A stretch of DNA of 64,000 nucleotides from positions 8,342 to 72,341 of the forward strand of contig CAYWMQ010000001.1 of assembly GCA_964459635.1 (NCBI GenBank), read 5' to 3'. Positions 6,237-63,468 of this stretch are shown one piece after another (the first letter of the stretch is position 1; the number at the start of each line of letters is the position of its first letter). The DNA is from an uncultured Candidatus Saccharibacteria bacterium (GTDB lineage Bacteria > Patescibacteriota > Minisyncoccia > Phycocordibacterales > UBA12088). Under the pieces are notes generated by a model. The model saw nothing but the letters and a program-made list of their open reading frames with translations. It was not told where the DNA came from and made no database searches. The position numbers and the translations under genes are program-made.

Positions 6237-6264
6237 TTGACTTTATCGCTAGAATGTGTATAAT
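6237..6264 (+). promoter_or_regulatory. sigma70-like promoter TTGACT-16-TATAAT
   Basis: TTGACT at 6237-6242 and TATAAT at 6259-6264 with a 16-nt spacer, 63 nt upstream of ATG 6327. Confidence 0.5.
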
Positions 6265-6326
6265 TATAAGGGAGCAGTAGCACATCAAATCCGGTGTGCT
6301 CGCCGTTCCTGTTAATGGAGGATGCA

Positions 6327-6560: not shown

Positions 6561-6597
6561 GCACAAGGTCGACCCTCGCCAGAAGACGTTCACACGG

Positions 6598-6622
6598 ACC
6601 CGGTGCTCTATGAGCACCGGGT
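6598..6622 (+). terminator. hairpin ACCCGGTGCTC-tat-GAGCACCGGGT after the small gene
   Basis: Perfect 11-bp stem with a 3-nt loop, 38 nt after the stop. No T-tract. Confidence 0.4.
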
Positions 6623-6673
6623 CTTACTGCGCGTGGTTGCTACACTAGCTTTCGTACTGATGGTTTTGCGTCT

Positions 6674-12483: not shown

Positions 12484-12929
12484 AATCCACAGTTCGCGCG
12501 AGATGCGCGACGCGATCTGTCATTGTCGACCATCCCCGACAGCGCACAGCTGTCAGCACGAGATCTGTGGAAAACACAGCATTAACGGCGCGGTGCTTGA
12601 TACAATATATGCATAAAGAAAAATATCCCAGAAAACGGGACTTTTCGTCACGCATGCCGCATCGCCGACACAACAATTTTGACGATGAATATACGCTGGT
12701 ACTTTCACCACGGCAGCGTCCCTCCGCGGGCCTTCTAAAAAGTGGCTTAAAACAAAGCCGAAGTGTGCAGGCGCGAGGGTCGCCTAGGTCTAACGCGCCA
12801 CGCGCAGGGCCGGTGCGACCTTACCCGCCGTCCAGCGCTCAGGTCGAACGAGTGCCGCACCAGATACACGACACGTCACGGGAAGGAGACCTTCGCGCGG
12901 CTTTCGGTATTGACGGCATAGTGGGACGC

Positions 12930-24415: not shown

Positions 24416-24474
24416 GGTGTGTATGAGTGCGCGTACACACGTGGCACAGTGGTATACTTGAGGTGCATCTTGCT

Positions 24475-37178: not shown

Positions 37179-38039
37179 ATGATCCAGTCACTCACACGGA
37201 CCGTTGCGGTCTCTGTGTGCTCCGTTATTTTGACGACGCTTGCAGTGAATGCAACGGACAGCATCAATGTACCCGCCGGTAGCATGCTCGCGGGCGTGTT
37301 TGGGGCGAGTACCTCTGTGGACACCGGTCCGTGTCCCAAAGATATGCGCCTGGTGAAGCAAGCACTCGTTCCCTTTTGTGTAGATGCGTACGAGGCGGCG
37401 GCAGGTGACAGTTGCCCGTATGAGACGCCCCGAAGCGTTGACGAGACGAACAAGAACCTTTCGGGGGCTTCATGTGCACCGGTATCCAAGGCCGGCACCA
37501 CACCATGGCGTTTTGTGGACGTTGTCCAAGCGCAAGCGGCCTGCTCCAGAGCCGGCAAGAGGCTGCTGACTGCAGACGAATGGTACAAAGCCTCACTTGG
37601 AACCCCCGACACGTCGTCAGAGTTTACCGGTGAGCAGTGCAACGTGGCGCGCAACCTCGCCGATGGTGTCGCCCCTACGGGAAGCGCCGCCCGGTGCGTA
37701 TCCGATGCCGGTGCATACGACATGGTGGGCAACGTGTGGGAGTGGGTGGATGGCGCGGTACGTGATGGTGTGTTCGAGGGACGTTCTTTGCCACGGAGCG
37801 GGTACGTGCAGGGCGCGGATACGAGCGGCATAGCGTACGAAACAGCGAGCGGCGCGCAAGCTGCGTTCGGCAGAGACCGCTTCTGGTCGGACAGCATCGG
37901 CACGATGGGGCTGATGCGTGGCGGCTACTTCGACAGCGAAGGTGATGCGGGTGTATTCAGCATATACGCTGCCAGTCCCCCCACCTTTGCCGGGGAGGCG
38001 GTAGGCTTCCGCTGTGCCACTGCACCGAAGAACCCGTAA
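37179..38039 (+). CDS. formylglycine-generating enzyme family protein (FGE-sulfatase / SUMF1 domain), secreted
   Basis: Signal peptide MIQSLTRTVAVSVCSVILTTLAVNA. Hallmark motifs YDMVGNVWEWVDG, RGGYFDSE and a C-terminal GFRCATAP. A possible -10 TACAAT lies at 37146-37151. Confidence 0.8.
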   Translation: MIQSLTRTVAVSVCSVILTTLAVNATDSINVPAGSMLAGVFGASTSVDTGPCPKDMRLVKQALVPFCVDAYEAAAGDSCPYETPRSVDETNKNLSGASCAPVSKAGTTPWRFVDVVQAQAACSRAGKRLLTADEWYKASLGTPDTSSEFTGEQCNVARNLADGVAPTGSAARCVSDAGAYDMVGNVWEWVDGAVRDGVFEGRSLPRSGYVQGADTSGIAYETASGAQAAFGRDRFWSDSIGTMGLMRGGYFDSEGDAGVFSIYAASPPTFAGEAVGFRCATAPKNP

Positions 38040-38124
38040 GTCACATATGGAAGAACGAGAAAGTCCACCCCCTGTAATAGAGGAGCATGCGCAGCGAGAC
38101 GCATCGACCTTGTGTGTACGTAAG

Positions 38125-40287: not shown

Positions 40288-40794
40288 ATGGCTACATTCA
40301 TGGATAAGCTCAAAGGCCGCGGCCTTACCGAAAAGGGCGGAAGTCTCTCCGCCGGCAGTGCCGCCGATCATGCGGGTACTCCCGCGATGGGCCACCAAGA
40401 GGTGGTCCCGAGCCGCGCACTCCAGCTTCCCGTAGACGTGTTCCAATCGGACGACGAGATCATCATATACGCACAGCTTGCCGGTATGGACATGCATACG
40501 CTCGACGTTTCCATAGCGGGAGATAATGACGTGGTGGCCATCCAAGGCACAAGCTTGCGCCCCGAGCATCTCATGCATGATGCGCATGCGGGCAGAAATG
40601 GGGACTATACGCTCGAAGAGTGCCACTGGGGTGATTTTTACCGCCAGATCATCTTGCCCGATGAAATTGATCCGGAGCGTGCGGAAGCCAAAACGAAAGA
40701 CGGCGTGCTTGCGCTACGTCTGCCGCTGGCAGGCAAGGCTGTCAAAGGCCGCAAACTGAACATCGTGCGTGCGGATGAACAGCCGCAGCAATAG
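40288..40794 (+). CDS. Hsp20/alpha-crystallin family small heat-shock protein
   Basis: Alpha-crystallin domain from VDVFQSDDEIIIYAQLAGMDMHTLDVSIAGDNDVVAIQGT to GDFYRQIILPDEIDPERAEAKTKDGVLALRLP. TATACT lies upstream at about 40220. Confidence 0.8.
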   Translation: MATFMDKLKGRGLTEKGGSLSAGSAADHAGTPAMGHQEVVPSRALQLPVDVFQSDDEIIIYAQLAGMDMHTLDVSIAGDNDVVAIQGTSLRPEHLMHDAHAGRNGDYTLEECHWGDFYRQIILPDEIDPERAEAKTKDGVLALRLPLAGKAVKGRKLNIVRADEQPQQ

Positions 40795-40810
40795 CGCACG
40801 AGCTCGCGCT

Positions 40811-42346
40811 ATGCTCGCGTCGAATATACACCGTGTTGTTCATAAAAATGCCGTAGCGCAGGCGTATACCCGCGTCAAAGTTTTTGTGGCGCTTGTTTTT
40901 TTTCCGTTTTTCTTGTTTCTTGTTTCTTGTTTCTTGTTTTCTACCTCCGCCCACGCCGCCTCCTACTCCTTTTCGCCCGCGTCCGGCTCCTACGAGGTCG
41001 GCAAAACGTTCACCGTGTCCGTCATGGTGGACCCGGGCACCGATGCGGTGAACACGGGCGATGGAGCGCTCTCGTATGACACCGCCAAGCTCACCGCAGT
41101 GTCGGTGTCCAAAGAGGGTTCCGTTTTCAATCTTTGGGTGACCGAGCCCGCGCTTAACGCGGGAGCGGGCACGGTGACTTTTGCGGGTGGTGCCACCACG
41201 CCCTTTTCAGGCTCTAAGCGAGTCGTCACGGTTAGCTTCAAAGCGAAGGCGGAGGGCGCCGCCACGGTAAAACTTGATAAGGGTACGCTGCTGGCAGGCG
41301 CCGGTCAGAACGTGCTTGCCGGATCCCTGCCCACCGCTTCTTTCACCATCACTCCCGCTGCCGCCAAGCCGCCGGTGGAGGAAAAGCCGGACACCCCTGC
41401 ACCCGCAAAGCCGGCACGTGCGGTGAATATCCCCGTACCTGATGCTCCTGTTATCAAGAGTTCCACGCACAAAGAAGAGGGCACCTGGTACAACCAGAAC
41501 ACCGTGAAGCTCACGTGGGACCTACCCTACGGTGTGACCGGGCTCAAGAAGCTGTGGAGCGAGAAAGCCGACGCAGAGCCCACCGAAGTGCATGAGCCGC
41601 CCATACCCGACTGGACAAAGGAGAACGTGGCCGACGGTGTGTGGTATTTCCATGCCGCGTATAAGAACAGGGGCGGATGGGGAAGCTCCACCGCGTTCAA
41701 GGTGCAGATAGATACTACGCCACCGAAAGAGTTTACCGTGACGGGCACCGGAGGAGACCTTGCCGCGCAGCTTTCATGGGCTGCTGAGGATGAACTCTCC
41801 GGTGTGGTCGTATACCGCATAGCCGTAGACGACGGCCGGCCGCGGGATGTACAGCCCTCCGAGCTTATAGCCGGCGGATATACGCTCACCAACATAGATC
41901 CTGGCGAGCATAGCATTATCGTGACGGCTGTCGATGCTGCGGGCAACGAGCGGGAAGCTCGCACTAAGGTCACCGCGACAGGTGAGCTCCCTCCCGCAGA
42001 AGGAGCGCAGGAAGTTGAAACATCCGGCTTCGGAGCCATCTACTGGGTATCACTCATCTTCATGGCGCTTCTTGCAGGTGCGGTAACGCTCCTTGTGCTG
42101 GAGCGGCGCAAGCATCATGAGGAGCGCGAGCTCATCAAGCGTGAGGCGATGGAGGCGGGCGACAAGCTCATCAACGTATTCGGCGTGCTGCGCGACGAGA
42201 TAGAAGAGCGCGTGCTTGACCTCTCGCACAAGCCCAACATGACCGACAACGAGCGCGAGATATTGGAAGGCCTTAAAGATGCCCTGGATGTATCCGAAGA
42301 GCTTATCGACAAGGAGATAGAAGACATTCGCAAGCTCCTCAAGTAG
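40811..42346 (+). CDS. membrane-anchored protein with an N-terminal cohesin-like domain, Pro-rich linker, FN3/Ig-like domains, a C-terminal TM and a cytoplasmic coiled-coil tail
   Basis: ATG 40811 gives the signal peptide MLASNIHRVVHKNAVAQAYTRVKVFVALVFFPFFLFLVSCFLFSTSAHA. Cohesin-like beta-sandwich pattern SGSYEVGKTFTVSVMVDPGTDAVNTGDGALSYDTAKLTAVSV...GTVTFAGG...VVTVSFKAKAEGAATVKL. Pro-rich linker EEKPDTPAPAKP. TM AIYWVSLIFMALLAGAVTLLVL. The cohesin assignment comes from pattern recognition only. Confidence 0.55.
   Translation: MLASNIHRVVHKNAVAQAYTRVKVFVALVFFPFFLFLVSCFLFSTSAHAASYSFSPASGSYEVGKTFTVSVMVDPGTDAVNTGDGALSYDTAKLTAVSVSKEGSVFNLWVTEPALNAGAGTVTFAGGATTPFSGSKRVVTVSFKAKAEGAATVKLDKGTLLAGAGQNVLAGSLPTASFTITPAAAKPPVEEKPDTPAPAKPARAVNIPVPDAPVIKSSTHKEEGTWYNQNTVKLTWDLPYGVTGLKKLWSEKADAEPTEVHEPPIPDWTKENVADGVWYFHAAYKNRGGWGSSTAFKVQIDTTPPKEFTVTGTGGDLAAQLSWAAEDELSGVVVYRIAVDDGRPRDVQPSELIAGGYTLTNIDPGEHSIIVTAVDAAGNEREARTKVTATGELPPAEGAQEVETSGFGAIYWVSLIFMALLAGAVTLLVLERRKHHEERELIKREAMEAGDKLINVFGVLRDEIEERVLDLSHKPNMTDNEREILEGLKDALDVSEELIDKEIEDIRKLLK
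40912..40939 (+). repeat. perfect heptanucleotide tandem repeat (CTTGTTT)4, inside the signal-peptide coding region of the cohesin-like protein
   Basis: cttgttt x4 at 40912-40939, with one more unit at 40893-40899. Covers codons about 34-43. Confidence 0.8.
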
Positions 42347-42638
42347 TCTTGCGCCCCTTTTTCAGCTGTTGCATAACGCGACGCATCTCTGTGCGCCGGA
42401 GCGCATCGCGTCACAGTATCGCTTGAGCGTGTGAGGGTGTGCGGTATGCGGGGGGAGACAGCTTGTAGAAAAAGTAAGCCCACAGCGGTGTCTGCGGGCT
42501 TACACACGTACTCTGCGAGCCGTCTCAAGAATAGCGGTTCGGCGCGCAACTGCGCAACATGCGCTATCCACAGAATACGGCTTTGTAGGGCCGCGTATTG
42601 CGCCGTACGAGAGCTTTCTCATGCGATACTGAGAGTAC

Positions 42639-43253
42639 ATGCGGAGCGCGGTATTTAAACATGTACATCGTTTTCCCGCACGTTTGCGTGAGCCGAAAGC
42701 GGCCCTGGCGCTCTTGGGTGCGGCGCTTTTTTTGATGGCCGTGGCTGCCGTATTTGCAACGAGTGAGGAACGTACGATACACATTTTCCCTACGTCCGTT
42801 TCCGATGCCGGGTGGAGCGGTGCTCAGAGGTCGCTTGAGCAAACGCTTTCTCAAAACGCCATTTTTGATGACTTCTCCGCAGAAAATAGCGCGAGCCTTT
42901 ACTTTACGCGTAACGCGAGCCGTTCTTCGGAGGGAGCACCGCATGAGGCCGTGAGCGCCGGCGACAGCACGTCGGGCGGCGACGCTGTTTCGTCCGAGGA
43001 CGCGTCGAACGATACGGAAGCGAGTGAAGTGCAGGGCGATCAGTCGGCTGAGTCTGGGGATCTACTAGACGACGCCGCAGACGCCGAAGGTCAGGTGCAG
43101 GAAGAGACACCCGCACCCGAGCAGGAAGAAGAGGCCACACAAGAAGACACGCCCACGCCACAGGTTTCTGAGGAGCCGGAACCGCTTGCCGACCTAAGCC
43201 CGTATGGGTATGTTCGCGATCTGTTGCGCGCCGCGCGTGGTACCGCCGCATAG
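42639..43253 (+). pseudogene. signal-anchor plus acidic-linker ORF, probably the severed N-terminus of the 6482-aa giant protein
   Basis: 204 aa with the TM ALALLGAALFLMAVAAVFA followed by a D/E/S-rich linker. It ends at TAG 43251-43253 and is in the same frame as the giant ORF 43278. Composition is continuous across the stop: ...AARGTAA*AQTQDEAQVQNIAPVDA.... Confidence 0.45.
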
Positions 43254-43277
43254 GCACAAACACAGGATGAGGCACAG

Positions 43278-46200
43278 GTGCAAAATATCGCGCCGGTCGA
43301 TGCGGTGATCGAAGGTGTCGAGTACGCAGAGCCTGCCCCGGGCGAGACAGCAAGCGGTGCAGAGGTTGCGCCGGAGGCGGAGCGGGGCGCGGATGCGAGT
43401 AGTGCCGAGACACGTGCACGCCAAGCGGACGAGGATGTGCGCGTGTGCACCGTACTGGATATCCCCTGTCACACCATACGCTACGACGGCTTTGATATCG
43501 GCAGCGTACTTGCGGATCACACAGTACGCGAGTACACACTGCGGCTTTCGCTTGGTGCGCGAGTCGAGGGCGAGAGCTTCACCCCGGACAAGCTGCTTGT
43601 GCGGTACATGAGCGCCGGCACATGGCACATTGCGGGAGAAGTGGTGATCGACCGCGAACTGTCCAACTTCGACAGCGGCGGGCACTTCTCATTCCCCTTG
43701 CCGGGGCTCACCGCGTGGGATTCCTTGGCCGACCTTGCTGTGGAGCTTGAGTACGTTCGGCATGGTACTGCAGAGACAGAGTTCTATGTCGACAGCGTGT
43801 GGGTGGATGCGCGGTATGCGGTGGTGGACGAGGGTGAGGAGCTGCAACTGGCACCGAACATCTTACCCGAGCTCGCGGTACTAGAAGACTCGCGGCGGCC
43901 GGACATGCTTCTTGTCGGGGATGAGCGCATTACTCTGCCGAGGACAGACGCCGTGCCGGGCGACGAGCTCGTCATTCGCAGCGACCATGACGTATACGAT
44001 GGCCTCACACGGGTGCGCTCGTACCTGTCCGTTACGAACCACGGAGACACGGAAATGTATGCGGATCTCGTAGTACGTACGGGCCGCCATGCGGAAGTAG
44101 TGGGACTGCGTGAGCGCGTGCGTGCGGTGCCGCAGTCTACGTTGGTGCCCGAGTACAGTGACGTGGCGTATTTGTGTGAAGGTGGGTGGCAGCCGGGTAG
44201 CATGTCGCAGGGTGTAGCCGCGCCATCTGACGTACCGGCAGATACAAACACGACAGACGGGGAAGAAGTGGAGGATGGCACAGCGAGTTCCTCCGTATCG
44301 ATGACGGAAGCGCTTGTGAGCGATGGTACGGGATCCGCCACCCTAGATGACGTCGGCCCGGACGCTTCAGGTGAGACTGCAGACTCGGAGGGCGAACCCT
44401 ATACCTGCGCCGCGACAGGTGAAGAGCGCGTGTGCTCGTCTCTCAATGATGACGAGACGAACTGCATCGCCGAAGAAGAACGCATTTCGACCACTGAAGA
44501 AGTTGCATACCGTGAAGGATGGCAGCCGGTCGGCCTGCGGCCCTACCGTGAGCGCACGAGTTTCTGGCAGCGAGTGCTTCGCAGCGAGGCCACCACTACG
44601 TCGGAGTTGCCCAATGCGGTGGAGGCAGAGGAGCGTGTACGGCTTGCTCCGCGGGAGACGCGCTTTTTCGCGGTGGACGTCGAAGTGGGTGTGCAGCGTG
44701 CGGGTGAGTTTGCTTTTGAGCTTCGCGCGGGCGACACGCATGCCGAGCGGCGCATGTGGTGGCGCAGCGGCTACTCGCGTCGTGTGCCTCTTACCGTTCC
44801 TCGTGTAGAATCCGAAGCGCCCGAGGTGCCACTCCTGTATCGCGTGCGGATAGAGGAGAATGACGTGCCCGGGTTTTTCACCACAGCGCGGTTGGACGGA
44901 GGGGATGTGCGTTTTTATGATGCGGCGCTTCGTCTTGAGTTACCGAGCAAAGTGGTCTCATTTTCATACGTTGAACAGGCGGCAGAGTACTTGGTGGAGC
45001 TTGGAGAAAGCTCGACACAGGCGAGCTCAAGCATCTTTGCATATTACGGTAACGATACGGTGATGGAAGCGTCACGGATGCGCGCCCCCTCGCAAACAGA
45101 TACGCCCATAGAGTACGTCCGTGCGGCGGAGTCCGCTACGGGGGCGCTCGTGTCTGTGACAAGTTTGCGTGACGGCAACACCATGCGTACGGGTGCGGGA
45201 GGTACGGAGGTGACACTCCACGAAGGTGAAGCGCTTGATATGGTGCTGGGAGAGGAGCCGCTCTATGCTCGCGGGCCCCTGCTCATACGCCCGGCCGACA
45301 CCGTGTCCTCAAAGGAAATGCGCGCGTTCGCGCTTACGCTTCCTGCGCATACCTACAGCCTCGCGCAAGGCACGTCGAGCCTCACGTATGTGGTAGAGCG
45401 CTACGCGAGCACAAGCCCCGAGCTGCGCTTTGGAGACGTGGAAGAGCTTCCGGTACCTGCGGTCGGTATTTTTGAGCCGCTCTCCTTTACCGACCAGCTC
45501 TCGCGCATACTGTACTTGCGCTCACTCACGGGCCCCGCGTACCACGACTTCCTTGAAGAGCTGCGCGACTTTGAGCTTGGCGATGAAGTGGTGTTTAAGC
45601 TCCGGTACAAGCCACAGCGGTGGGGTATCACGCGCTTTTTCCGCGGGCTTGTGCGCGACCGCCTCGCCACAGTGGCGGGCGTGCGTCTCCTGTACGGTGG
45701 GGAGGTCCTCACGGACGCGCGTTTTGACGTCTCGTACGGCGCAGAAGGCGAGTGGACCATCAAGCTTACAGAAGCGCCGAGAAGCCTCGTACCGGGCAAG
45801 TACTCCGTCGAGCTCACCATTGACGAAGTGGGCGAACTCTACACCGACACCTTTGATTTTTACTTCGGGGTGCTTGCCGTGAACACGCCGGAAGCCACGT
45901 ACGAGACGGGCAGCGTGGCCGAGTTCCACATGGCCGCGCTCGACGATCGTGGTGACACCATATGCGATGCGGAGCTGCGCTTGCTCATCACACCACCGTC
46001 CGGTCTGGCGGAGGAGATACCGGTAGAGCGCTCCACCACCTGCGGTCCCAACAACGTGACCGATGAGCCCGACTACCGCGCGCTCTATCGTTTGCGGGAG
46101 AGTGGCACGTACGACCTTGTTCTCACGCATGTAAACAGGGAGGGTGAGATAGTGCACCAGGTGCGCGATGCAGTGCACGCGGCCGAGCGCATGCCGTACA

Positions 46201-49200
46201 CGATAGAGCGGGCGGGCGCCACGCGCATCTGGCCGAAAGCGCCTTACACCATGCACCTCACCGTGTCGGCACGCGAGGACTGGAGCGGCACGTTGGTGGA
46301 GGCACTGCCGCGTGACTTCGTAGTGACGGACGCGGGCGGTGGGGAGTCGTCGGTGTGGGGCGGGGCCAAGCGTCTGAGTTGGGAGCTTACACTTGCGGCG
46401 GGTGAGTCGGTCACACTTTCGTACGAGTACGATGCGCCCGATCGCTCGCCGTACCTCTACCTCCTCGGGCCCGCGGAGCTTCGTGTGGGAGAGCAGGCTG
46501 CGTACCGCGAAGCAAAGAGCTGGAAGCTCGCCTCCGACGCGCTCGGGCAGTACACCGAGTCCTACGTCACCTTTACCCCAACGGTAAATGACACGTGGAC
46601 GACCATTGATCTCTCCGGTGCGCCGTACAGCATACCCGCGAACGCCATTCTTGAGATCGCGATCTCAAACGTGGACACAGGTAACGAGGCATACGGCGGT
46701 GTACGCAGCGGTGCCTCGACCACGCTCGACCGCCGTGTACGCATTCATGAGGCCGAGCCGTCAGGATCGGACGTCACCACCATGTTCGTACAAGCCAGTG
46801 CAACGTCAAGCATTCAGTACTACTCCGACGACACCAATGACATACGCTTCACCATTCTTGGCTACTGGACGAGCGGCACGTATACCGAGCGTTGGAGTGT
46901 GTTTGGACCTGCGGCGAACAACTGGACAACAGACTGGAACCTTAACACGTACGGCGTAGCCGACGGCAACGTGGCGGAAATCGTCTTAGTGAACACAGAT
47001 GGTTCAAATGAGTACGCTGCAGGCGTACGCACACTAGGCTCTACACTCACGCGCGAGGTGACCATACACGAGCCTGAACAGGGCGGCGTAGATACCGCTA
47101 CCATGCTTGTACGCGCGAGTACCTCCAACGCGACCATACGGTATCGTAACGCAAACGCTGCAATAGACTTCTACGTGGCAGGCTTCTTTTCGACGTTGCC
47201 CACCGGTCTTGAGTACTATGAGCGGTGGGACGACCTCGGCGGGCCAGCCAGCGCAAACACATGGACCGATCGCAGGCTCGACGACATCACCGTTCCCAAT
47301 TCAGCCATCGCAGATGTTGCGTATGCCAACACTGCTGCAGACGACACCACAGTCACGATCGGTGTGCGTGCCAACGGCTCGTCACTTTCCCGCACCGCCG
47401 AGCTGCACGAGGCTGAGGCGGGTGGCCAGAACCACGCGCGGTCGCACGTCACGGCAGGCAGTGATGCAAGCAGCACCATCGAATACTTCACCGGTAACAC
47501 CGCATACGACTCATTCCGGCTCGCCGGATACTGGGCAGCCGCCAACTATCCGCCCGATGCACCAACGCTCCACGACATACCGTTTGACAATGAAAAAACA
47601 GGGAGCTCGACACCGTACTTCGAGTTCACCGCATCCGACCCCGATGGCTCTAGCGATATCGTCTATCAGGTGCAGTGGGATGATGATGCCGACTTGGATG
47701 CTTCACCTCTGGGTGACCGCTCAAGTGATAATGAAACGGGCTGCTCTCCCAACTGTTTTGCCAATACCGTAAGCGGTGGCGACACCTCGCCTTTTACCGA
47801 GGGGCAGCGGATACGTTTCAGCATACAGAGTGCGCTCACGAGCGGTACCACATACTACTGGCGTGTACGTGCCAAAGACAGCAGCGGTTCGAACATCTAC
47901 TCCGAATGGACAGAGGTGCGTTCTTTCACATACGTGGCCGACACGAATCCGAAAGCGTGGTACCAAACAGCCGATGCGCAGTTTGACGGTGGTACTTTTT
48001 CGGGCGCGGAAACGTACGGTGCCAATTCCGTACGCCTTGCGACCACACCGCCCGTTGGCGCCATGGTGGCGTACGGCGAAGGTACGGTGGCGACACCACG
48101 GTACCAGATATGGAACGGTACCGCGTGGGGCGGAGAGCTCAGTGCGCAGAGCGCTACGGGTAGAATAAGCTGGACCGTACTGCGTGCCGCTCCCACACGG
48201 GATGAATATGTCCTGGTGACGCAAACCGCCACAGGCACCGTATTGGCGCAGGTGTACAACGGCACAAGCGGTACGTGGGGCAATGCACGCGTGATGACGA
48301 GCGCGGCCCCAAGCGCCGATCGTCGCGCGGTTGACGTGGCGTACCGCGGTCTTTCGGGTGAGGCGGTGGTGACGTACTGCGATGGTGATACCGACCCAAG
48401 CACGAACATTTGGAACGGCACGAACTGGTCCGCCACCACCACCCTCGACACGCAGTTCAACAGCGCCTGCAACTGGGTCGCGCTCGCTGCAAGTGACGCG
48501 AGCGATGAAATAGCGGCGGTCGTGCAAGCCGACAGTACGAACACCACCTCCGACTTTGAGGCGCAGATACTGACCGGTACTACGTGGGGCAACAGTTACA
48601 CCGGGGGCAGCAATACGGCGGGTGAAGAATTTCTTGAACGCATGTCGATCGCGTATGAGGAGTCGGGGACGGAAGCGGTGGTCGTCGTAGGCAACGGCGG
48701 CACCGCCAGTTTTGTCAGTGCGGTCTGGAACACTACGGCACAAACATGGACCGCAAACGCAAATCGCGGCACGCAAGACGACTTTGAGTGGTCTGAGTTT
48801 GCTGTGGATGATGGGTCCGACAACCTCGGTCTATGCTACATAGACGAGGACAACCAAGTCCACATCGCCAAGTGGAACGGCACGAGTAACACGTGGGACG
48901 CGTACGATGCCGCGGGTGACCAAATAGACACTGGCGGAAAGGCAAACGGTACAACCGACTACCACGCTCGGCCCGTCACGTGCCGGTACGAAACAACAGC
49001 AGGCCGCGATGGCTATCTCATGGTGCCGTACTCTGATACCACGAACGCGCGGTATCGTGTGTGGAGCACATCACTTACCGTTGAGCAGTCCATCTCGACC
49101 ATAGAGGATTCATGGACCGTGAGCAGTGCGCGCACGGGGGATGGCCTCATTCTCACGCTTTGGCGCGACGATACCAACGACCGCTTCGACTTCTCCTACT

Positions 49201-52200
49201 GGAACGGCAACTCGTGGTCGGCACGTGCCGCGTTGGAGAGCTCAATGGCCGATGATACAGAGCCCTATGCCGAGCCGGCCATGATAGCCGCACAGCGGTT
49301 CCAAGCGTCTGCCGGCTCCATCGTTTCGCCCATCATTGATTTCGACAGTGTGCCCGGGCAAAGCTCCTGGGGCGAACTCCTATGGACCACCACTGAGCCC
49401 TCGGGCACCGACGTTGTCATGCAGGTGTACTACGCCACCACGACCGCGGTCTGCAACGTGCTTGTGCCGGACGCGGCGCTTGCGGGCAACAGCACCGGTT
49501 TTCAAGCCACCTCGAGCCCGCTCAACCTCTCCGGACTTTCGACCTCTACCTACAACATGTTGTGTCTCAAGGCCTCGCTCTCCTCACAGTCAAGCCAGTC
49601 GTCCACCTTGGATGAGTGGACGGTCTCGTGGGTGCGACAGCCGTTCCTTACGCAAACCGCCTACCGCTGGTATGCCAATACAGATGCAAACACACCCACC
49701 GATGTGTGGCCGGTGGGCAGTAACAGTGTGGCGGAGAACGAAGCCATTTCGACCGCCTTCGCACCTAACGTGGGTGATGTATTGCGGCTTCGCTTGGGTA
49801 TGCTTGACTCTAACGTGACGTTGGCCGCAAGTAGTACCGCATTTACCCTGCAGTGGGCCGAAGGTGTGTCATGCAGTGCCAGTATGGACTGGCAGGATGT
49901 TGGTGCGTCCGGTAGTAGCGTCGCATGGCGCGGGTACGATAACGCGTCCGTGTCGGATGGTGCAACGCTCAGTTCGCGTCTTCTCAGCACCACTGACGTG
50001 TCTTTTTCATACGAAGAAGTCAATGACACCGCGACAAACACCAGTGCGCTCGCTCCCACGGAGGAGGCAGAGTTCGACTTTGTGCTGCAGCACAACGCGA
50101 CATCTTCCACCAACTATTGCTTCCGTCTCATCAACGATGATGGTTTGCCCATCAATCAGTATGACCGGTACCCGCAGCTCATAACGAACGCGCCACCCTC
50201 TACGCCGGTGCTCGCAACACCATTTACCTACGAAGCGCTCGCCTCGACCACACCATGGTTTACGTTCGTGGCGGAGGACATAAAAGGTGACGATATCCAC
50301 TACGAGATAGAGATCGACGATGACCCTGCGTTCGGCAGTCCGCTCACACGAAACAGTGCCGATCACTTCAATGAGTTCGTTAACACCGTCACGCCGGCCG
50401 ACAAGAGTCCGTTCACCTCCGGTGAGCAGGTGCGCTTCGTGCCCACTACTGCACTTACCGACAACACAACCTACTGGTGGCGCGTGCACGCACGAGACCC
50501 GTCCGGCAGCAACGACTGGAGTGACTGGTCCGTGGCGTGGAGCTTCACCGCCTCATCGACCGTGAGTATCTCGACATGGTTCCAAACTACGTACGAGCAA
50601 TTTGAGGAAAATGATCATGAGAACACCGAAGCGACCGTGAGTGATGATGTGGCACTCATCCCCTCGAACACACTTGGTACGACGACCGCGCCCGGTATCA
50701 AGTTTGCGTGGAAGACTACCGGCAATGCGTGGGGCTCGCTCTCATGGACCGAGAACGAAACGACAGGCACTTTGCGAACGCGTGTACAGTACAACAACAA
50801 CGGGATCTGGGAGCTCATCCCCGACTCGGTGCTTTCCGGTAACAGCGTGGGATTTGCAGCGGGCCCGGTGTCGCTTTTGGGTCTTGACCCGACACTCTAC
50901 AGCGAGATACGTCCGGTTGCGTACCTGCAAGACGTGAGCGGATCGCCGCGACTCCTGGACTGGACGTTGAGCTGGGGACTCGCGGTAGAACAGCCCACGC
51001 TCACGAGTCCGTTTGACAACGAAAAAGTTGCCACCGTCACTCCAAGCTTCACCTTCCGATCCACCGATCCCCAGGGCAACGACCTTACATACGAGATCCA
51101 GTGGTCCGCGACACCGGACTTCGCGGCATCCACCACGCGCACGTCCGGCACGCATACGGGCTTTACGAACACCGCGAGTTCGACCGATACCTCACCGTTT
51201 CTTGAAGACAACATCATTCGCTTCACGGTGCAGGGTGCGGATGCGCTTACCAATGGGGCCACCTACTGGTGGCGCGTTCGAGCGAAAGACCCCGGCGGTG
51301 GCGACACGTGGAGCGTGTGGAGCCCGATACGCAGCCTCACGGTGGATACGAGTATCACGGTCTCAACATGGTTCCAAACGACCGATGAACAGTTCGATAC
51401 TGATTTTTTGACCGACCTTGAAACCTACGGCTCAGACCAAGTGCGCATTACCTCTACCATTCGTGAGGCGCTCGTGGCATACGCGGAAGGTGTGGTGCAG
51501 ACGCCGCGGTACCGCTTGTGGAACGGCAATGCCTGGGGCACCGAAAAGAGCGCCGCGAACATAGGAGAACGCATCTACTGGATACGCACCGCTGCGGGGC
51601 CCGCGCGCGACGAGTATGCCATGGTGACGGGCGGCCTGTCGGGCGCAGTGAAAGCACAAGTGTACAACGGTACGACCGGCCAGTGGGGCGATCTTGTTGA
51701 TATGAGCACACCGGCCGCAACAAACAGGCGCGGGTTTGATGTGGCGTATGAGTCCGTGTCGGGACGCGCAATGGCCGCGGCATGTCGCGGTGCGGATGCG
51801 GTGTATCGTACATGGGACGGCGCGAGCTGGAGCGCTACGTCCACCATAAACCTGGGTTTCACTCAAAACTGTGAGTGGCTCACACTTGCGAGCGACCCAA
51901 CTTCAAACGAAATTATTTTAGCTGCGCGCGCGAACACCGCGAACACCCCGTACGCGTTTGAAGCGCAGGTATGGAACGGCTCTGCATGGGGCAACAGTAC
52001 TGCGCAGGGCTTGATGGAATCTACGGACGCAGAGAACATCGGCATGGCCGTTGCGTATGAAGAGTCGGGCGATCAGGCGCTTTTTGTGACCAGCAACGGC
52101 ACCAACGCAAACTTCCACTGGCGCACCTGGAACGGCGCGTGGTCGGGCACGAGCTCCACCACGACCGTTGACGATTTGGAGACTCCGAAGATAGCGCAAG

Positions 52201-55200
52201 ATGCGGGCTCCGATGCGCTTGGGCTCTGCTACATCACAAATCTGAACAGCATGTACTACATGCGCTGGGACGGTTCGAAATTTGTGAGTGCACCCACTCA
52301 GTTTTCGGCAGATAGTAACAGCAAGGATGGCGGACATGCATTCGACTGTGCGTACGAAACCACCGCCGGCCGCGATGGGTACCTCATGATGCCGTACACC
52401 GACGGCACGCTTGGCTACTATCGTTTTCATAACACCTCGACCGGCCTTTCTGCTGAAGCGGCTCTGTCGAGTGTAACCGACTCATGGTCGGTCGAAAGCG
52501 TTCGTACGGGCGACGGGCTTATTCTGGCCGTCTTCTGGGACGATGCGAATACGCAGTTTGACTTTTCATACTGGAACGGCACCGCCCCGTGGAGTGCGCG
52601 GCAAACGCTCGAGACAAACGTATCCACCATCGTAAACCCCATAGTTCCCGTGTCGCTCACCCCCCGCCGGTACACCTCATTTACGTCAGGCACCCTCGTC
52701 TCAGACCCCATTCATTTTTCCGACGGTACTGGGCCGCGCTGGGGAGTGGCAAGCTCGACGGATACCACACCGGGCGCCTCAGAGATACGCTACCAGTTTG
52801 AGCACAGCACCGATAATGGAGAAACATGGGCGCTCATACCGGACTCTGCATTGCCCGGCAACTCCGTAGGTACCACCTCAAACACGGTTGATCTCTCCGC
52901 GCTTTCATATACCACGTATGACGTCATACGCTATGTGGCCAACTTCGCCTGCGTCTCGGGTGACTGCCCCATACTGCACGACTGGACGATCGCATGGTCT
53001 GAGGGGCTCAAGGTTTCCGGTACCGCAAAGGGCTACGACGAGAGCACCAACGTGACGAGTGGTACCGTGGCGGTCGCGGTGAATGGTGCTGTGCAGACGG
53101 GTAAGACGGCGAGTATCTCGGGCGGTACATGGCAGATAAACAACGTTACCATGTTCCCGGGCGACACGGTCCATGTGTGGATACAAGGCGCAGCAGACGC
53201 AAACGAGGCGGCAGCGGTCTTTCGGTACGACGGTGTGGGCGACACGACGGGTGTCGAGCTCTTTGAGCGGCACCTCACCATAGGCTCACATGATGCGACC
53301 ACAACAACGAACGCCCACATTGCGCTCTACGACAACAGTGCCTCGGGGAATGAAGACCTGTTCTTTGAGGTCGACAGCGGCAACGACCTCACCGTGTGTT
53401 CGGTCGGAGCGTGCAGCGATGCGGAGCTCTTCGTGGCTCAGGGGTACACGTACCGGCCCGACTCCGCTTCGGGCGGCAACGTTTCCACGCACGATATGGA
53501 GATAGCCGGTACATTGACCGCAGACGGCAACACGCTCACGGTGTCGGGCTCATGGGAAAACCGCGGCATCTTCACCGCAAACAGTTCAAGCGTTATTCTC
53601 CGTGCGACATCCAGCCAAGAAACCTTGAGCTCTGTCGGCGCCACGACGAGCGCGTTCAACATACTGACCTTGGGGCAGACCTCCGGTAATGCCACGTGGA
53701 CGCTCGCAGGACCCCTCGAAGTGGACGGCAACTGCACCCTGTCGTACGGCACACTAAATGGGTCTACATCCGCGCTCTTCCTGGGTGGCAATTTTTCACT
53801 TGCTGCGGGTACGACCTTCCTCAAGAGCACGGGCACCACAACATTTGACGGGACCGGTGTAGCGGTGATTACAGATGCAACTGCGGCAAAGCAAGACTTG
53901 GGCAAGGTAGCTGCAAGCGGTACGAGCAAAACGGTGCGTCTTGGCTCAGCACTAAAGCTTACCGACCTCACTATATACACGGGAAACACGTTCGACGTGT
54001 CGTCAAACAACTACGCGCTTGAGGTACGTGGTGATTTCCGGAACAGCGATTCGTTCTCGGCACGTGCAGGTACCGTCACCATGACGGCAACGACCACGGG
54101 GCGCACACTTGTGCCTGGCAACTCTCCTTTGTATGACCTGACGTTCCAAGGGGTGGGGGGTAACTGGGCGTTTGGACAGCCTCTTGTTACGGTGCAAAAC
54201 AACTTGACCATTGCGACCGGCACCGTCACGCTCGCAACAGGCACGACAACAGTATCGGGAAGTTTGTCTAACAGTGGCACACTTGTGCACAACAACGGTA
54301 CGTTGGAACTCACCGGAAGCGGTTCGAAAACGTTGACGCAGGGCGGCTCACCACTCTACAACCTCACCGTAAACGGTGCAGGCGCGTGGAGCTGGACCGA
54401 GCAAAACGCGACATCCTCCGGATCCACACGTATCCTGAACGGCACGTTGACAATGCCGGCGGAAACGTACGCGGTGGGCAAGTCTTTTGTAAATGCCGGA
54501 GGCACCGTCGCCCCCAATGGCGGCACGCTTCGCTTCACATCGAACGTAGCCGAAACAGTGCAGGCAAACGGTTCTGCACTCTACGGGCTCACGTTTGACG
54601 GCGCGGGAGGGACGTTCGCGTTGGCGGACACCAACCTTGTTGCAAGCGGCACGGTGCGCTTTGTTGCGGGGACGACCACGCTTCCATCGGGTACTATGAC
54701 CGTGTCGGGTTCTTGGGTTACGACGGGCGGCACGTGGAATGCGAATGGTGGCACTGTGCTCTTTAACTCGGCGGCCACGGGACGTACGGTCACTACCGGC
54801 ACCAACAACTTTGCGTCCGTGACCTTTAATAGTGCGGTGGGTGGCTGGAGCATCGACTCGCATGCAACGTCGACCGGTGCATGGTCACTTCTTGCCGCTC
54901 AAAGCTACACGGTCGCGAGCGGCAACACCATGGCTGTAGGTGGGGCGTTTGTCAACAATGTACCGGGTGCCACCACATGGACCGGCTCCACACTCGCACT
55001 CAGCTCCGGCACTTCGTATACGGTAGGGAGCTCAAGTCAAGCGGCGGAAACATACGGCACGCTGCGCATTGGTGCAAATACCGACGTGAAATTCTGGCAG
55101 TCGTCCGCAGCAAGCTATGCGGTCGACAGTACCGGTTCTCTCTACTCTCAGGATCATGCGGCACAGAATGGCGACCTGTATATATGGGGAGAGTACGTGC

Positions 55201-58200
55201 GTACGAGCGGTACCGAGCACTGGAGCTATGCGACAGACTTTGATGGCACCGATATCGGCGGCTCTCCGCGGCAAGTGGACGTGCGCTTTGCCTCCGGTGC
55301 ATCCGCCCAGTTCACCGGTGCGACCTTGTCGCTGCGTGGAGACGCAGCCGCCACCACCACGCTGGCGAATCAAGGCTCGGGCAGCTACAGGCTGCAGCTT
55401 ACGGGAAGTACGTTGTTGGCGGAGTACTTCAGCGTTGCAAATACCGATGCGGATGGACTCGCGCTCATGGCGTCTACCACCGTGAACTACTTGCGTGACG
55501 GCACGTTTACGCTTGACACACAGGGAGGGTCAATGCTCACGCTCGCATCCACCACCATTGACAAAAATCCGCTCTTACAGCCGGACCGCCTTTCTTTTGG
55601 AACGTCCACCGGTATCTCGACAGGGTACAACGTCACCGCCTCCGGTACAGCCTCGTCCTATTGGTGGTTCAAGAACACGAGCGGCAACTATGATGGTGAG
55701 TCATACGACAATGACCCGGTTGCAGGCGCAGGGAGCATACGGTGGGATGACTCGGGCTTTACGATAAACGTGTCCGGCACCGTCTACACGGGAGAAGGTG
55801 CGGGTGTACCCGCGTACTGCAACGGGTCCACACAGGTGCTTCGGCTTGTGGTACAGGGCGTGACGACGTACGACACATCGTGCGCTGCAGGTACGGGCGC
55901 ATTCACATTCTCCGGCGTTACGTACTCGGGCGATGTCACGTTCATGGCGTTTCTCAACGGCACGTCGGGGCGTGGCGCCACCGTCTCACGTACACCGCAA
56001 GGGAACATTGCGGGCTTCGACCTTTACCAGGATCGCGTCATAGTGCGTCACGAGGATACTGCGGCGCTCAGTATAGCGAACATGCTGCTGTATGATGCGG
56101 ACCAAGACCTAGACATTCCGTTCGACGCTGAAGCGGGTTCTCTCACCGTATCTCCGGAGACCGGCCTCCATGTGTGGGCCGCAAAGACGTTCGCACCGAG
56201 CGGCAATGTCACGCTTCAGTCCGGCGGCTCGGGCGCAGTACAGGACGGCACGCTTCGCCTTGCCTCGGGGAGCGTCTTTACCGCGGCGGGATCGGAAAGT
56301 CACAGCATCGGAGGTTCGTGGATAGCGAACACGGGTGCCACCTTTACGGCTGCAAACTCCACGGTAAACTTCACGGCGACCACTACAGGCAAGACCATTG
56401 CACCGAGCGGCAGCTTCCACAACCTCTCCTTTACGGGGTTAAACGGCGGCTGGAGTGTGGCCTCTTCGACGCAGGTGGCGAACAACCTTGCGGTATCAGC
56501 GGGTACCGTAAGCGGCACCGGAAACGTGACGGTGGATCTTGGTGCATTCTCAGGAAACGGGAGCGTCACTATGACGGGTGGTACCGTAACGGTGAACAAG
56601 GGTGGCAATTTCGGCGGTAATAGCACGTGGACGTTCAACAATTTGACGCTTGGCGATGGTACATCGGGCACCACCGCCAAAGTGGGCTCCGGGGATATAG
56701 CCGTAAGCGGCGCACTTACCGTGAGCGCCAATCATATCTTGGAGGCGGGTTCATACACTTGGACGCTTACGGGGAGCGGTGCGGTCTTGTTGGTACCCGG
56801 GACCTTTACCGCACAAACGTCCACCACAACATTTGCGGGCACAGGTGCAATGACGGTCCCGGCGCTCACATACCACAACCTCGTGCTTGCGCCAACCGCG
56901 GCGGGCAGCCCCACGTACACGCTCGCGGCCGGGAGCCTTACGGCCAATACCGTTACCGTAGGGAACGGTACGCACCCGGTGACGGTGCAGGTAAACACAA
57001 ATGATCCGCTCATAACGGTTGCCGGCACCTTCCGTAACCGCACAAACGCAACGTACCAAGCGGCGAGCGCCAATGACCTCATGATCGCAGGCTCGTACAT
57101 AAACGAAGGTACCTTTACGGCAAACGGCGGTGGTGTGGTAATGAACTCCGCAGACACGGGCGAGCTCGTGACGCCGGGTGCATCGTCTTTCCATCACCTG
57201 ACGTTCAACCATGCGAGTGGCGGCTGGACCATTACAGGCAATGCAACGACGACCGGTAATTTCACCCTGACGGCCGCCTCCAACTTTACACAGGCGAGTG
57301 GCAGCACGCTTAGGGTAGAGGGCATTTTCCTTAACAGCGTGGGCGGTGGTGCGACCACGTGGAGCGGCACCACGCTCGCGTTGTACTCCGGTACGAGCTA
57401 CAGCATGAATACCAAGACGACCGAGGGCGACACCTACGGCACGCTGTCGGTAGGCACAAATACCGACGTGGCGATGTGGAACTCTACGTCGTCAAGCTAC
57501 AGCATATCCCCGTCGGGCTCGCTCTATTCACAGGACCACAACAGCGTAGATGGCGCACTCTATATATGGGGCGACTACACGCGCACGAGCGGTACCGAGC
57601 ACTGGAGCTACGCCACCGACTTTGACGGCACCGATATCAGCGGCACGCCGCGCCAAGCGAAGGTGTACCTTGCGGAAGGAGCATCCACCACACTCTCTGC
57701 CGGGACGTGGAATATCCTTGGTACTTCGGGCGCCACCACCACCATTCAAAATCAAGGGAGCGGTGTGTACGGCCTCAAGGTTGCAGGCGGCACCTTTAAT
57801 GCGCAGTACTATCGCGTGCGTAATGTAAATGCGCTCGGTCTCGAGTTTGCGGGCACACCGACCGTGACCTCGCTCTCGGATGGCGACCTGGAGCTTGGCA
57901 TCACAGGCGGCGCGATGCTCACGATACCTGCATCGGTCATTACGACGAACCCCGTCAAGACCTGGTATCGCGTTTCTTTTGCGACCAGCTCCGGTGTTAC
58001 GAGTGGGCGTAACGCAACGAGCTCCGGCACCACCGCAAGTTCGTGGCGCTTTACCCCCGCGCTTGGCAACTACTACGGCGAGGCGTACGATGGCGACCCG
58101 GCGGGCGACCCCGGCTACCTCATATGGGACGACAGTAATGCGCAGGTCTCGATAGGCGGCAATGTGTACAGCAACGAAACAGGTACGGTGTCTGCCTTGT

Positions 58201-61200
58201 GCAACGGCTCAACGCAGGTCGTGCGTATGGTGATACAGGGCGGCAGCCCCCAGTCCACCTCGTGTGCGGCGGGTACCGGGGCATACCTCTTTACGGGAGT
58301 GAGCTACTCGCCCGGCGACGCAATAGTGGTATACCTCGATAACGCGGCAGCTAAAGCCGCAAACGTGACGGTGGACCCTGTCACGTCTATCGCCGATATG
58401 CATTTGTACGAGTCGCGCGTGGTGGTGCGGCACGAAGATACGAACGCGATCACCATAGCGGACCTCGCCGTATATGATAGCGATCAGGACACCGATATTC
58501 CGTTCGATGCGGATACCGGCAGCCCCAACACACTCACGTTGCCTGCAAACCGCAAGCTCATCGTGTGGAACGGCAAGACATTCACTCCCGGCGGCAACGT
58601 GACACTTACTTCGGGGGGTAGCGGTACGGACTATGACGGTACACTTGAGCTCAGGGACAATGCGACGTACGTGTCATCGGCTTCGTCAGCGGAGACCATA
58701 TCAGTGGGCGGGAGTTGGCTTACAGGTGCGAGTGCATCCTTTACCGCGGGTACAAGTACCGTGACCTTCACCGCGACCACGTCCGGCAAGGTGGTCAGTC
58801 CGGATCGGTCCGCGTTCAACAACCTCACCTTTAACGGCTCGGGCGGTGCTTGGACGTTCGCAGACCGCGACGCCACCACGACCCGCAACTTCACGCTTAC
58901 GGCGGGAAGCGTAACGCTTGGTACCTCGACGCTGGCGGTGGGCGGCTCGTTTGTGAACAGCGGCACGCTCTCCGCCGCATCGACGAGCATCAGGTTCAGT
59001 GCGGCGGCTCCCGCCACGGTCACGTTTGGCGGAGCAAGTGTGGGGAGCCTTACCTTTGCAGGTGCCGGGGCACACACCATAACCGATACCAGCGCCACCT
59101 CGACAGGCTCTGTCTCGATCACGGCCGGCACGGTCGCACTGCCCACGAGTGTGTTTGCGGTGGCGAATGGGTTCTCCGCGCAGGGGGGCTCGTTCACACA
59201 CGCGGGCACGTTGCGGCTCTATGGAACACTTGCGGCACAGACGCTGCGTGTGGGTGCTTCCACACTCAGGCACCTTCTTATTGACGGCTCGGGTTCGTGG
59301 GCGTTTGCAGACACCGCGGCCACCACAACAGGGACGACCACAGTGCGTGCGGGGGCCCTGACTGCGCCATCGCAAACCTTTGCCATCGGCGGCAGCTTCA
59401 CGAACAGCGCCACGTATAACAGCAATGGCGGCACCATGCGCTTCTACGCAACCACCACAGGACAAACCATTTCTGTCGGGGGCGCACTGCTGGCGAACGT
59501 CATCATTTCCGGCACGGGAGGTGGGTGGACAGTGGCCACGTCGGCGACTACGACGGGAGCGTTTCGGCTGCAGACGGCAACAGCGTTTGAGATGGCGAGC
59601 AGCACAGCTCTTGAAGTGCAAGGACAATTTGAGAATACCGTGGGAGGCGCGGCCACCAACTGGACTGATTCGCGCTTGTACCTGAACGCCTCAGGGACAA
59701 GTTATGCGGTAAACGGTAAGTCATCGACCGGGGATACGTACGCGTTCTTGACACTCGGCCCGAATACCGACGTCTCCATGTGGAACTCATCCGCCGCCAC
59801 CACGACGGTGCATGCGTCAAGCTCGCTGTACGCAATGGATCACGCGGGTGTCGATGGCTCGCTCTATATTTGGGGCGAGTACGTGCGGAGTGCGGGCGCT
59901 GAGTATTGGAGCTATGCGACGGACTTTGACGGTGCCGCGCTTGGCGGCAGCGCACGTGCCGTTTCAGTGCGCGTTGCCTCAAGCAGTACATTGACGTTTA
60001 CGGGCGGCTCGCTTGATATGGTGGGTAGCACAGGCGCCACCACGTCCGTCGCGGTGATAGGTACGGGTGCGTACAGCATCGTAAAGTCGGGCGGATCGCT
60101 CAACGCACAATACTACTCGTTCCGCAATCTCACGTCTCAAGGTCTCGTACTCAGTAACGCCATTACGGTGACGTCGCTCTCGTATGGAGACTTTGAACTC
60201 TCAACACCAAACGGTGTTCTCCTCCAGGTGGCTTCGAGTACCATTGACCAAAACCCGACCAAGACCATTGTGGGTAATCGCTTTGCGTCCACGTCCGGGA
60301 TTACGGGCACGAACGTGAAGGTGAACGGTACCACCGCGAATTTCTGGGACTTCCAAAGCCACTACGGCGAGATCGACGGTGAATCGTACGACGATGATGG
60401 TGTGGATGCGTGCGGTGCGGTGCGCTGGGATGATAGTACGTGTCTTGAGGTATCTCAGGCGCATTTCCGCTTCAGGAACGATGATGGTGGCGGTGGTGCG
60501 CCGGACAGTGAATGGTACAACGCAGACTGGAGCAAGCGTGTGCGGCTGAACGTGAGAAACCAGAATGGTACGACGCTCACTGACGTACCCGTGCGCATGG
60601 AGCTTCCGTACGACTCCGACATGCAGTCCAACTGGAACGATATCCGGTTCACCGATGCTTCCGGTACCACGTCGCTCCCCTACTTTGTGGAGCGCTACAC
60701 AACGAGCGCCACGGCCACCATTTGGGTCAAGGTGCCGAGTATTCCCGCAAACGGCTATGCATCCCTGTATGCCTACTATGGCAACGCGTTTGCCGCAAAC
60801 GACGAGAGCGGGGCGAATACATTCAGTAGCTTCGATGACTTTGAGGACGACAGCATCTCTGAGTACTCGGGCGATACGGGCGTCTTTGATGTTGTTGCGG
60901 ACTCAGGTGCAGAAGGCAGCTACATCCTCAAGGCTGGTGCGGGATATGAAAACGACCAAACAACGGACGGCATATACCGCACCGGCACCACATTCGGGCA
61001 AGGCAGTACGGTGCGCTTCCTGCAGTACGTAGACGCAACAAAAGACGATGAGCCATGCGCACTTTTTGGCGTGCAGAGTCCCGGCTCCAACAATCAAAAC
61101 TATGCCGTGTGTCTCGACCAGTATCCGAGTGACAGGCTGGTGCTTGCGAAGAATGTATCCTCCAACGATGGCTCCGGCACCGTGCTGGCTTCCTCGTCCA

Positions 61201-62726: not shown

Positions 62727-62784
62727 CTTTTGGCGGAGCGAACATGCACAGGCTCCTCATGCTCATCTAACACACCTTATCTTT

Positions 62785-63468
62785 ATGCGCTTACTCACCA
62801 TTGCTCTCGTACTTTTCGCGCTCGCGGGAGCGGCTGCGTACATGTGGCACTACTATGGCGGCTTCGCAGGTGATGATGCGGGCGCGGTGATGTTCATAAA
62901 TGCGTATGGTGAGTATGCAGACGTGGCGCAGCGCGCCGATGCGCTCACGCATGCACCCACCGTGGAGGAGAACACTTCGCGGAGCGACCTGTATGCTTCG
63001 CTTGCCGCCATGCTCACCGAAGCCCAAGCGGATGATGTGCGCGAAGTGCGGGCACGTGCGGCATTTGCGCAGCTTGATCAGCTCAAGCGGGAGGTTGATG
63101 CGGCGCAAGCGGCGCAAGCGGATCTGCTCGCCGCACAAGAAGCGATGGGAGAAGCTGCGCGGGCGCTCAAGAGTGCGCGTTTGCGCGTGCGGGCGCAAGA
63201 GATCGTGGAAGCTGCCGGTGTGCGCAGTGCGGTATCAGCCAAGATCACCGGTCTGCTTTCGCACGCGAACGATGAGTCATACGCCATCATTACCAGGGTC
63301 CTGGAGGAGAAGGGGGCACTTTCACAGGAGCATATCATTCGTATCAACAGCATTACCACGGCAGCTGAGACGCGCCATGATGAGCTTACAGCTGCGTACG
63401 ATGAACTCGTTCGCGCGGAAGAGCTCATACAAAGCTCGTTTGCCGCCTTTGTAGCGGAGGCGCTGTAG
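62785..63468 (+). CDS. membrane-anchored coiled-coil hypothetical protein (227 aa)
   Basis: ATG 62785 gives MRLLTIALVLFALAGAAAYMWHYYGG (a signal-anchor), followed by an A/E/Q-rich helical region. The track's GTG 62719 would overlap the giant-gene stop. Confidence 0.45.
   Translation: MRLLTIALVLFALAGAAAYMWHYYGGFAGDDAGAVMFINAYGEYADVAQRADALTHAPTVEENTSRSDLYASLAAMLTEAQADDVREVRARAAFAQLDQLKREVDAAQAAQADLLAAQEAMGEAARALKSARLRVRAQEIVEAAGVRSAVSAKITGLLSHANDESYAIITRVLEEKGALSQEHIIRINSITTAAETRHDELTAAYDELVRAEELIQSSFAAFVAEAL

Follow-up and report, generated by a model that had tools for sequence, protein, structure and literature searches.

An in-frame TAG that parts the membrane anchor from the body of a giant surface-protein gene in a Candidatus Saccharibacteria bacterium is probably a recent nonsense allele

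In a 64,000-nucleotide (nt) stretch of DNA from an uncultured Candidatus Saccharibacteria bacterium (contig CAYWMQ010000001.1, positions 8,342 to 72,341; the whole stretch is hereafter called the window), an open reading frame (ORF) of 204 amino acids (aa) is followed in the same frame by an ORF of 6,482 aa, and we wanted to establish what the TAG codon that separates them represents. A first-pass annotation, made from the sequence alone, had offered three explanations: a sequencing error, a recent nonsense mutation that splits a giant gene, or programmed readthrough used as an ON/OFF layer. A frame scan bears out the arrangement which that annotation described. The TAG at 43251-43253 (+ strand) closes the 204-aa ORF (42639..43253, ATG start), and the frame past it is open for 6,490 codons up to the next TAG at 62724-62726; the first start codon after the stop is the GTG at 43278, which defines the 6,482-aa ORF (43278..62726, + strand). 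This TAG is the sole stop in the frame between 42639 and 62726, flanked by 206 open codons on the left and 6,490 on the right, and in a six-frame scan no other place in a real + strand gene of the window had a stop between two long open stretches. The 204-aa ORF is made up of a signal-anchor, a conserved N-terminal module, an acidic linker, and most of a linker motif. Hydropathy analysis agreed with the proposal that it contains a transmembrane (TM) helix and that the giant ORF lacks a signal peptide: no 19-residue window of the 6,482-aa product reaches a mean Kyte-Doolittle hydropathy of 1.6, and both a TM helix and a signal peptide are absent from it. The acidic low-complexity linker continues across the TAG, and this seamless composition is backed by homology. 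The intact protein had been predicted to have an N-terminal anchor and about 6690 aa; the anchor and the single ORF are indeed seen in relatives, and the length of the conceptual joined protein comes to 6,695 aa. Overall, the reading that we favor, with a probability of roughly 0.8, is that the TAG is a lineage-specific, recent, single-lesion nonsense allele, fixed in the sampled population, which splits a giant surface-protein gene.

The TAG is real. Gene calls with exactly this 204-aa product exist on 15 contigs, each assembled separately from runs in the range SRR13617028-45. Ten of these contigs (L001-L010, 3.4-12.3 kb each) were retrieved; every one reads GCA TAG GCA and matches the window without a mismatch. 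The recurrence of the identical TAG in contigs from 10 separate runs excludes a mistake of assembly or consensus calling, and we reject the suggestion of a sequencing error. Giant genes in metagenome assemblies often bear errors, and the nearest orthologue of the window gene, at locus L011, is frameshifted by 1 nt at a G run, but the difference considered here is of the substitution type and lies in non-repetitive sequence. Nor does standard recoding of TAG, either as pyrrolysine (Pyl) or by genome-wide sense reassignment, agree with the codon usage of the window (to which our stop-usage, tRNA, and pyl results refer): TAG ends 13 of the 22 other putative genes and is the dominant stop, the six-frame scan detected no other interrupted gene and no in-frame TAG in any other window gene, and no pyl-type gene is present among the Pfam matches of the scanned ORFs. 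We thus regard an error or a standard recoding of TAG as scarcely credible. The adjacent run accessions and the complete identity of the sequences indicate that the 15 contigs probably represent one clonal population and not independent lineages, and the TAG allele is fixed, or nearly so, in the sampled population.

Relatives of the giant protein were found by an exhaustive HMMER search, which used the 1,200 aa following the TAG as a query and returned 2,302 relatives. Among the best 150 of these matches, the full-length proteins that match the N-terminal part of the query all bear 180-330 extra aa ahead of it. Query position 7 aligns with protein position 198 in P0001, position 26 with 258 in P0003, position 33 with 326 in P0005, position 62 with 307 in P0056, position 50 with 232 in P0101, and position 60 with 261 in P0144; P0053 and P0113, which have shorter extensions, are N-terminally truncated entries that start inside the linker. 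In each of the seven proteins read (P0001, P0002, P0003, P0005, P0056, P0101, and P0144), the extension contains a TM helix and a module of the form EER(T/L)IH(I/V)FPT..GW...LEQ.L...A...DF...NSA, which aligns column by column with residues 42-98 of the 204-aa ORF; a Pfam scan of the module in the window gave no match. The shared TM helix and module imply that the two ORFs of the window are the two ends of one polypeptide elsewhere. We note separately that a word-indexed protein search, conducted with the joined N-terminus and with a 258-aa domain, returned zero matches and missed even the query's own entry in the collection. Negative results from such searches are untrustworthy for giant proteins rich in low-complexity sequence, for which the exhaustive search gave the relatives used here.

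The relatives read at the stop site comprise 17 distinct sequences; the DNA loci number 14 (L011-L024), some of which duplicate the same sequence. L011 is the locus of P0001, eight loci came from a scan of species-representative genomes, and five came from a scan of Joint Genome Institute (JGI) metagenomes; as an alignment of seven sequences was too divergent for locus finding, one of four sequences was used instead. All eight species-representative loci belong to candidate phyla radiation (CPR)/Patescibacteria genomes assembled from metagenomes, and the loci include those of Parcubacteria GW2011_GWD2_42_14 (LCCS01000007, L013) and GW2011_GWA2_43_11 (L019) and of a Paceibacterota genome (JAYRSE010000006, L014). 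At all 14 loci, one open frame runs from the anchor through the linker into a Cys-containing domain, and a stop at this site was seen in none of the 17 distinct relatives. Further, a tblastn comparison placed counterparts of the window's HSP20 and cohesin-domain genes, 52-82% identical, directly upstream of the giant gene in L011-L019 and L021-L023; in L024, the cohesin gene alone was found upstream, and L020 holds too little upstream DNA. Gene calls and Pfam matches for L011 also give the order HSP20, cohesin, giant. This conserved synteny indicates that the loci are true orthologues and, therefore, that the unsplit state is ancestral. Hence, the comparison of orthologues that the first-pass annotation had put forward as a check shows them not to be two genes.

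The window gene shares with the orthologous CPR giants (L013, L014, L019, P0002, P0003, and P0005) the HSP20-cohesin-giant neighborhood, the N-terminal TM helix, the EERxIHxFPT module, the acidic linkers, the [AV]-x-A|[QE][ED] element, and the Cys domain; it is colinear with them over about 6,600 residues and has the same C-terminal end. The pattern of the Cys domain, C..L...C(H/R/Y)T...GFDIG..., located about 250-330 aa from the N-terminus, is kept in the window gene. The difference is that the orthologues consist of one ORF, and the window alone has a TAG, at position x of the linker element, that parts the anchor from the body. We conclude that the window gene is a member of a widespread, uncharacterized group of CPR giant anchored proteins and that it has all the group features tested (TM helix and module, Cys domain and colinearity, and synteny) except a single uninterrupted ORF.

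The residue at x, the position taken by the stop, is F, Y, L, H, or R in the 17 distinct sequences. The closest full-length relative, P0002 (the same as L021), reads GCG TAC GCG CAA where the window reads GCA TAG GCA CAA. Because this TAC (Tyr) is one base away from TAG, a single C-to-G change is the most economical path to the stop. Judged from the codons of the relatives, the ancestral codon would most simply have been TAC or TAT (Tyr), with CAG, TTG, and others likewise one step away. The linker element itself is short and conserved amid an otherwise unconserved acidic linker, and it is also present in L011-L024, P0005, P0101, P0144, P0113, and P0056. We considered [AV]-x-A|[QE][ED] as a cleavage site of the signal-peptidase type (AXA) after a second hydrophobic segment and rejected it because the segment before it, whose maximum 15-residue mean hydropathy is 0.2-1.4, has too polar a composition to form a membrane helix; an AXA-like reading of the element is speculation.

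The body of the gene downstream of the TAG is intact. The joined protein is 59% identical to P0002, 50% identical to P0003, and 42% identical to P0005 over 5,848-6,632 aligned positions, and the alignment with P0002 extends over 6,632 positions up to a shared C-terminal sequence, ...YWGIYVP...TFY.... In a leave-one-out test, which asked how many of the columns invariant in three of the four sequences the fourth keeps, the window kept 87.5% of the invariant columns compared with 86.4% for P0002, 78.6% for P0003, and 65.5% for P0005; the window sequence thus displays no relaxation of constraint and no decay. Stop-creating changes make up 3.2% of all single-base changes in the giant ORF, and, in the absence of selection, the chance of a second nonsense codon would reach 50% at 0.11% divergence and 95% at 0.48% (indels not counted). 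In the other five frames of the giant stretch, the longest open run is 380 codons. The intact body and the rapid decay expected of an unselected one leave two possibilities, a very young TAG or a body still under selection. An old, decaying pseudogene was rejected in view of the one stop in 6,695 codons and of the invariant columns, which are kept as in intact orthologues; the gene is at most a very young, single-lesion pseudogene. The suggestion of a recent nonsense mutation is thus strongly supported, given that 14 of 14 syntenic loci and the other protein relatives are continuous, P0002 has TAC at the site, and the 19.5 kb downstream are undamaged. As an observation on the nearest orthologue, we note that the frameshift at L011:13990-14035 (JGI 3300076802, Ga0645783_01495), at the G run in GTGCGGGGCAGG, ends P0001 at 3,344 aa, after which homologous sequence (AGDGVILVGYWDDANT...) can be followed in a different frame over more than 1,415 aa. 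The frameshift has two possible explanations, a genuine and independent second disruption of this gene family or an assembly error at the homopolymer.

The state of the body also enters into a different explanation, which is related to the readthrough that the first-pass annotation envisaged: the TAG could be a maintained leaky stop, selected as an expression throttle, so that mostly the 204-aa stub and few anchored 6,695-aa giants are made, or, in a related form, the population could be switched ON and OFF by mutation and reversion. Several observations would fit such a stop: the 6,490 downstream codons have no flaw and are conserved to the same degree as those of intact orthologues; the stop takes the single position of the motif where F, Y, L, H, and R are all accepted, so that any inserted amino acid should be tolerated; and TAG is the only allele in the contigs from this run set. 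Against this, TAG is the codon of none of the 17 relatives, and no stimulatory RNA structure follows it: the fold of 43230-43380 was no better than that of shuffled sequences (z = +0.65), and the readthrough context that the first-pass annotation had thought worth looking for was not found. The TAG-G context also occurs at 3 of the 13 ordinary gene ends that use TAG, the main genuine stop of the window. ARAGORN detected no tRNA, and hence no suppressor tRNA, in the 64-kb window, Rfam found no family in the window, and scans for promoters, terminators, and tandem repeats around the stop revealed nothing relevant. Pfam matches on the neighboring ORFs were to NAD synthase, NAPRTase, an ABC transporter, a P-type ATPase, an M17 peptidase, HSP20, and cohesin- and dockerin-domain proteins. 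Programmed readthrough is, moreover, rare in bacteria. The window resembles known cases of programmed readthrough and recoding (viral leaky stops, selenocysteine and Pyl decoding, and phage and CPR reassignment) in having an in-frame stop between parts of one frame. Unlike in those cases, the stop is unconserved and lacks both a downstream structure and a cognate tRNA in the window, and no other gene is affected. Within the 64-kb window, the gene shows none of the testable hallmarks of programmed readthrough, stop-codon reassignment, and Pyl decoding, and a programmed ON/OFF layer is unsupported. We consider a maintained leaky stop unlikely, and, more narrowly, a selected throttle that works by spontaneous readthrough at the substitution-tolerant residue, or a toggling by reversion, more doubtful still. 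If true, a throttle or toggle would let a cell whose genome is tiny limit, at low cost, its output of a surface protein that is extremely expensive.

The two ORFs could also constitute a genuine two-gene operon that arose by gene fission, in which an anchor subunit and a giant subunit with its own start work together. Gene callers report two genes, and a Shine-Dalgarno (SD)-like GAGG lies 5 nt before the in-frame GTG at 43278, 24 nt past the stop. However, no orthologue is split at the site, and the giant part, lacking a signal peptide and a TM helix, cannot reach the outside of the cell, where its domains belong. Further, an SD sequence and a start codon within 15 codons are found by chance at 8.9% of codon positions in the giant gene, a background that arises because GAG-G codon pairs are abundant in its acidic linkers. 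Consequently, we rejected the SD sequence and GTG 43278 as an evolved second start, as their occurrence is not significant against this background and gives no evidence of adaptation. A two-gene operon is, in our opinion, improbable.

We propose that the favored nonsense allele would have arisen and acted as follows. The ancestral gene would have encoded an N-terminally anchored, extracellular giant in the conserved locus of HSP20, cohesin-protein, and giant genes, and one base change would have turned the variable middle codon of the linker motif into TAG. Ribosomes would then stop after 204 aa and yield a membrane-anchored stub, which, by the positive-inside rule, would have its N-terminus inside the cell and the remainder outside. 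The body might be reached by two routes. First, re-initiation at GTG 43278 would produce a giant that, being without an export signal, would be stranded in the cytoplasm. Second, near-cognate readthrough of the TAG, as a rare event, would give some full-length protein; the anchored giant would be obtainable by this route alone, probably in small quantity. Because x tolerates very different residues, the readthrough product would probably work, and unprogrammed, low-level leaky expression, which would make the allele a hypomorph, is possible. That the body belongs outside the cell is indicated by its immunoglobulin (Ig)-like, DUF2341, and Cys-containing domains and by the N-in/C-out anchor of the intact relatives. 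The net outcome would be that the surface giant is lost or strongly reduced.

Several points weigh against a recent nonsense allele or limit what can be said of it. The untouched remainder of the ORF argues for a recent event, but the unbroken 19.5 kb downstream fit continued selection on the body through residual expression as well as recency. Further points are the tolerance of the stop position for F, Y, L, H, and R, and hence the probable working of a readthrough product, and the plausible SD sequence and GTG 24 nt past the stop. Finally, the closest relatives found, at most 60% identical, do not date the TAG: a scan of JGI metagenomes with the window's own domain revealed no near-identical intact allele that would allow dating, and in a cluster look-up at 90% identity the window's protein had no other member. 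The nearest parallels to the nonsense allele are ordinary premature-stop alleles, or young single-lesion pseudogenes, of large bacterial surface adhesin genes, in which, as in the window, one disabling substitution hits a very large and otherwise intact target and a lineage-specific lesion is fixed in one population. The window differs from them in that its stop occupies a tolerant linker position with a possible restart just after it, and its loss of function is putative.

Table 1. Features of the split giant gene and its immediate surroundings. Positions are those of the window; KD19 is the mean Kyte-Doolittle hydropathy over 19 residues.
Feature	Position	Strand	Basis or detail
Upstream neighbors: HSP20 gene (40288-40794) and gene for cohesin-domain membrane protein (40769-42346)	40288..42346	+	Pfam
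204-aa ORF, severed N-terminal fragment of the giant gene	42639..43253	+	Aligned with N-termini of single-polypeptide homologues P0001, P0002, P0003, P0005, P0056, P0101, P0144
TM helix/signal-anchor, aa 21-39, AALALLGAALFLMAVAAVF, after basic stretch MRSAVFKHVHRFPARLREPK	42699..42755	+	KD19 = 2.57
Conserved N-terminal module SEERTIHIFPTSVSDAGWSGAQRSLEQTLSQNAIFDDFSAENSASLYF	42762..42932	+	Column-by-column alignment with all intact homologues
Conserved linker element P-L-x-D-h-[ST]...[YF]-h-h...R...[AV]-x-A|[QE][ED]	43182..43262	+	Reads PLADLSPYGYVRDLLRAARGTAA, stop, AQT in the window; stop at x
Premature in-frame stop TAG	43251..43253	+	Orthologous codons TAC, TTT/TTC, CAT, CTT, CGT/CGC
Giant body, remaining 6,490 codons and stop	43254..62726	+	Colinear with P0002 to the last residues
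Possible re-initiation site: AGGA 43264-67, GAGG 43269-72, 5-nt spacer, GTG 43278-80	43264..43280	+	Sequence
Gene for 249-aa TM protein, start overlapping the end of the giant ORF by 8 nt	62719..63468	+	ORF list, hydropathy

The features of the locus are compiled in Table 1. The giant body holds the Cys-containing N-proximal domain (43434-44189), Ig-like repeats, and DUF2341. Because of the 8-nt overlap, the downstream gene for a 249-aa TM protein is probably translationally coupled to the giant gene, and it may suffer polarity if the body is untranslated. The HSP20, cohesin, and giant genes are closely preceded in the window by genes for a dockerin-domain protein (38014-40020) and an FGE-sulfatase-like protein (37179-38039), an arrangement that suggests a surface assembly of the cohesin-dockerin style around the giant. 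The 292 nt of intergenic DNA before the 204-aa ORF contain a perfect-looking hairpin with a 12-bp stem at 42474-42503 (GTAAGCCCGCAGACACCGCTGTGGGCTTAC, - strand reading); a T run accompanies it solely on the - strand, where no convincing gene ends at this place. Elsewhere in the window, a second giant-gene cluster (12567-30312) contains a gene for a 592-aa TM protein that overlaps by 4 nt (ATGA) that of a 3,357-aa protein with an N-terminal TM helix, DUF7483, and DUF7361. A 1,961-aa ORF with neither a TM helix nor a signal peptide begins 12 nt after the 3,357-aa gene in another frame and is either a separate gene or a frameshifted continuation of it. The G+C content of the window, 59%, is high for a CPR genome.

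A full-text search for the sequencing runs yielded no publication on the samples, and a preprint on giant genes (10.1101/2023.11.21.568195) does not discuss interrupted giants. For annotation, our analysis means that the 204-aa "hypothetical protein" and the 6,482-aa "giant without a signal peptide" are halves of one disrupted gene and should be labeled accordingly, not as an unusual leaderless giant or a case of recoding. The phenomenon is an ordinary one, made conspicuous by the size of the gene. The frameshift in the nearest orthologue hints that these 20-kb giant genes are frequent targets of inactivation or of assembly error. For the organism, our results suggest that a conserved giant surface protein kept by the relatives has disappeared, or almost disappeared, from this population, which would bear on the dispensability of such proteins for the CPR lifestyle.

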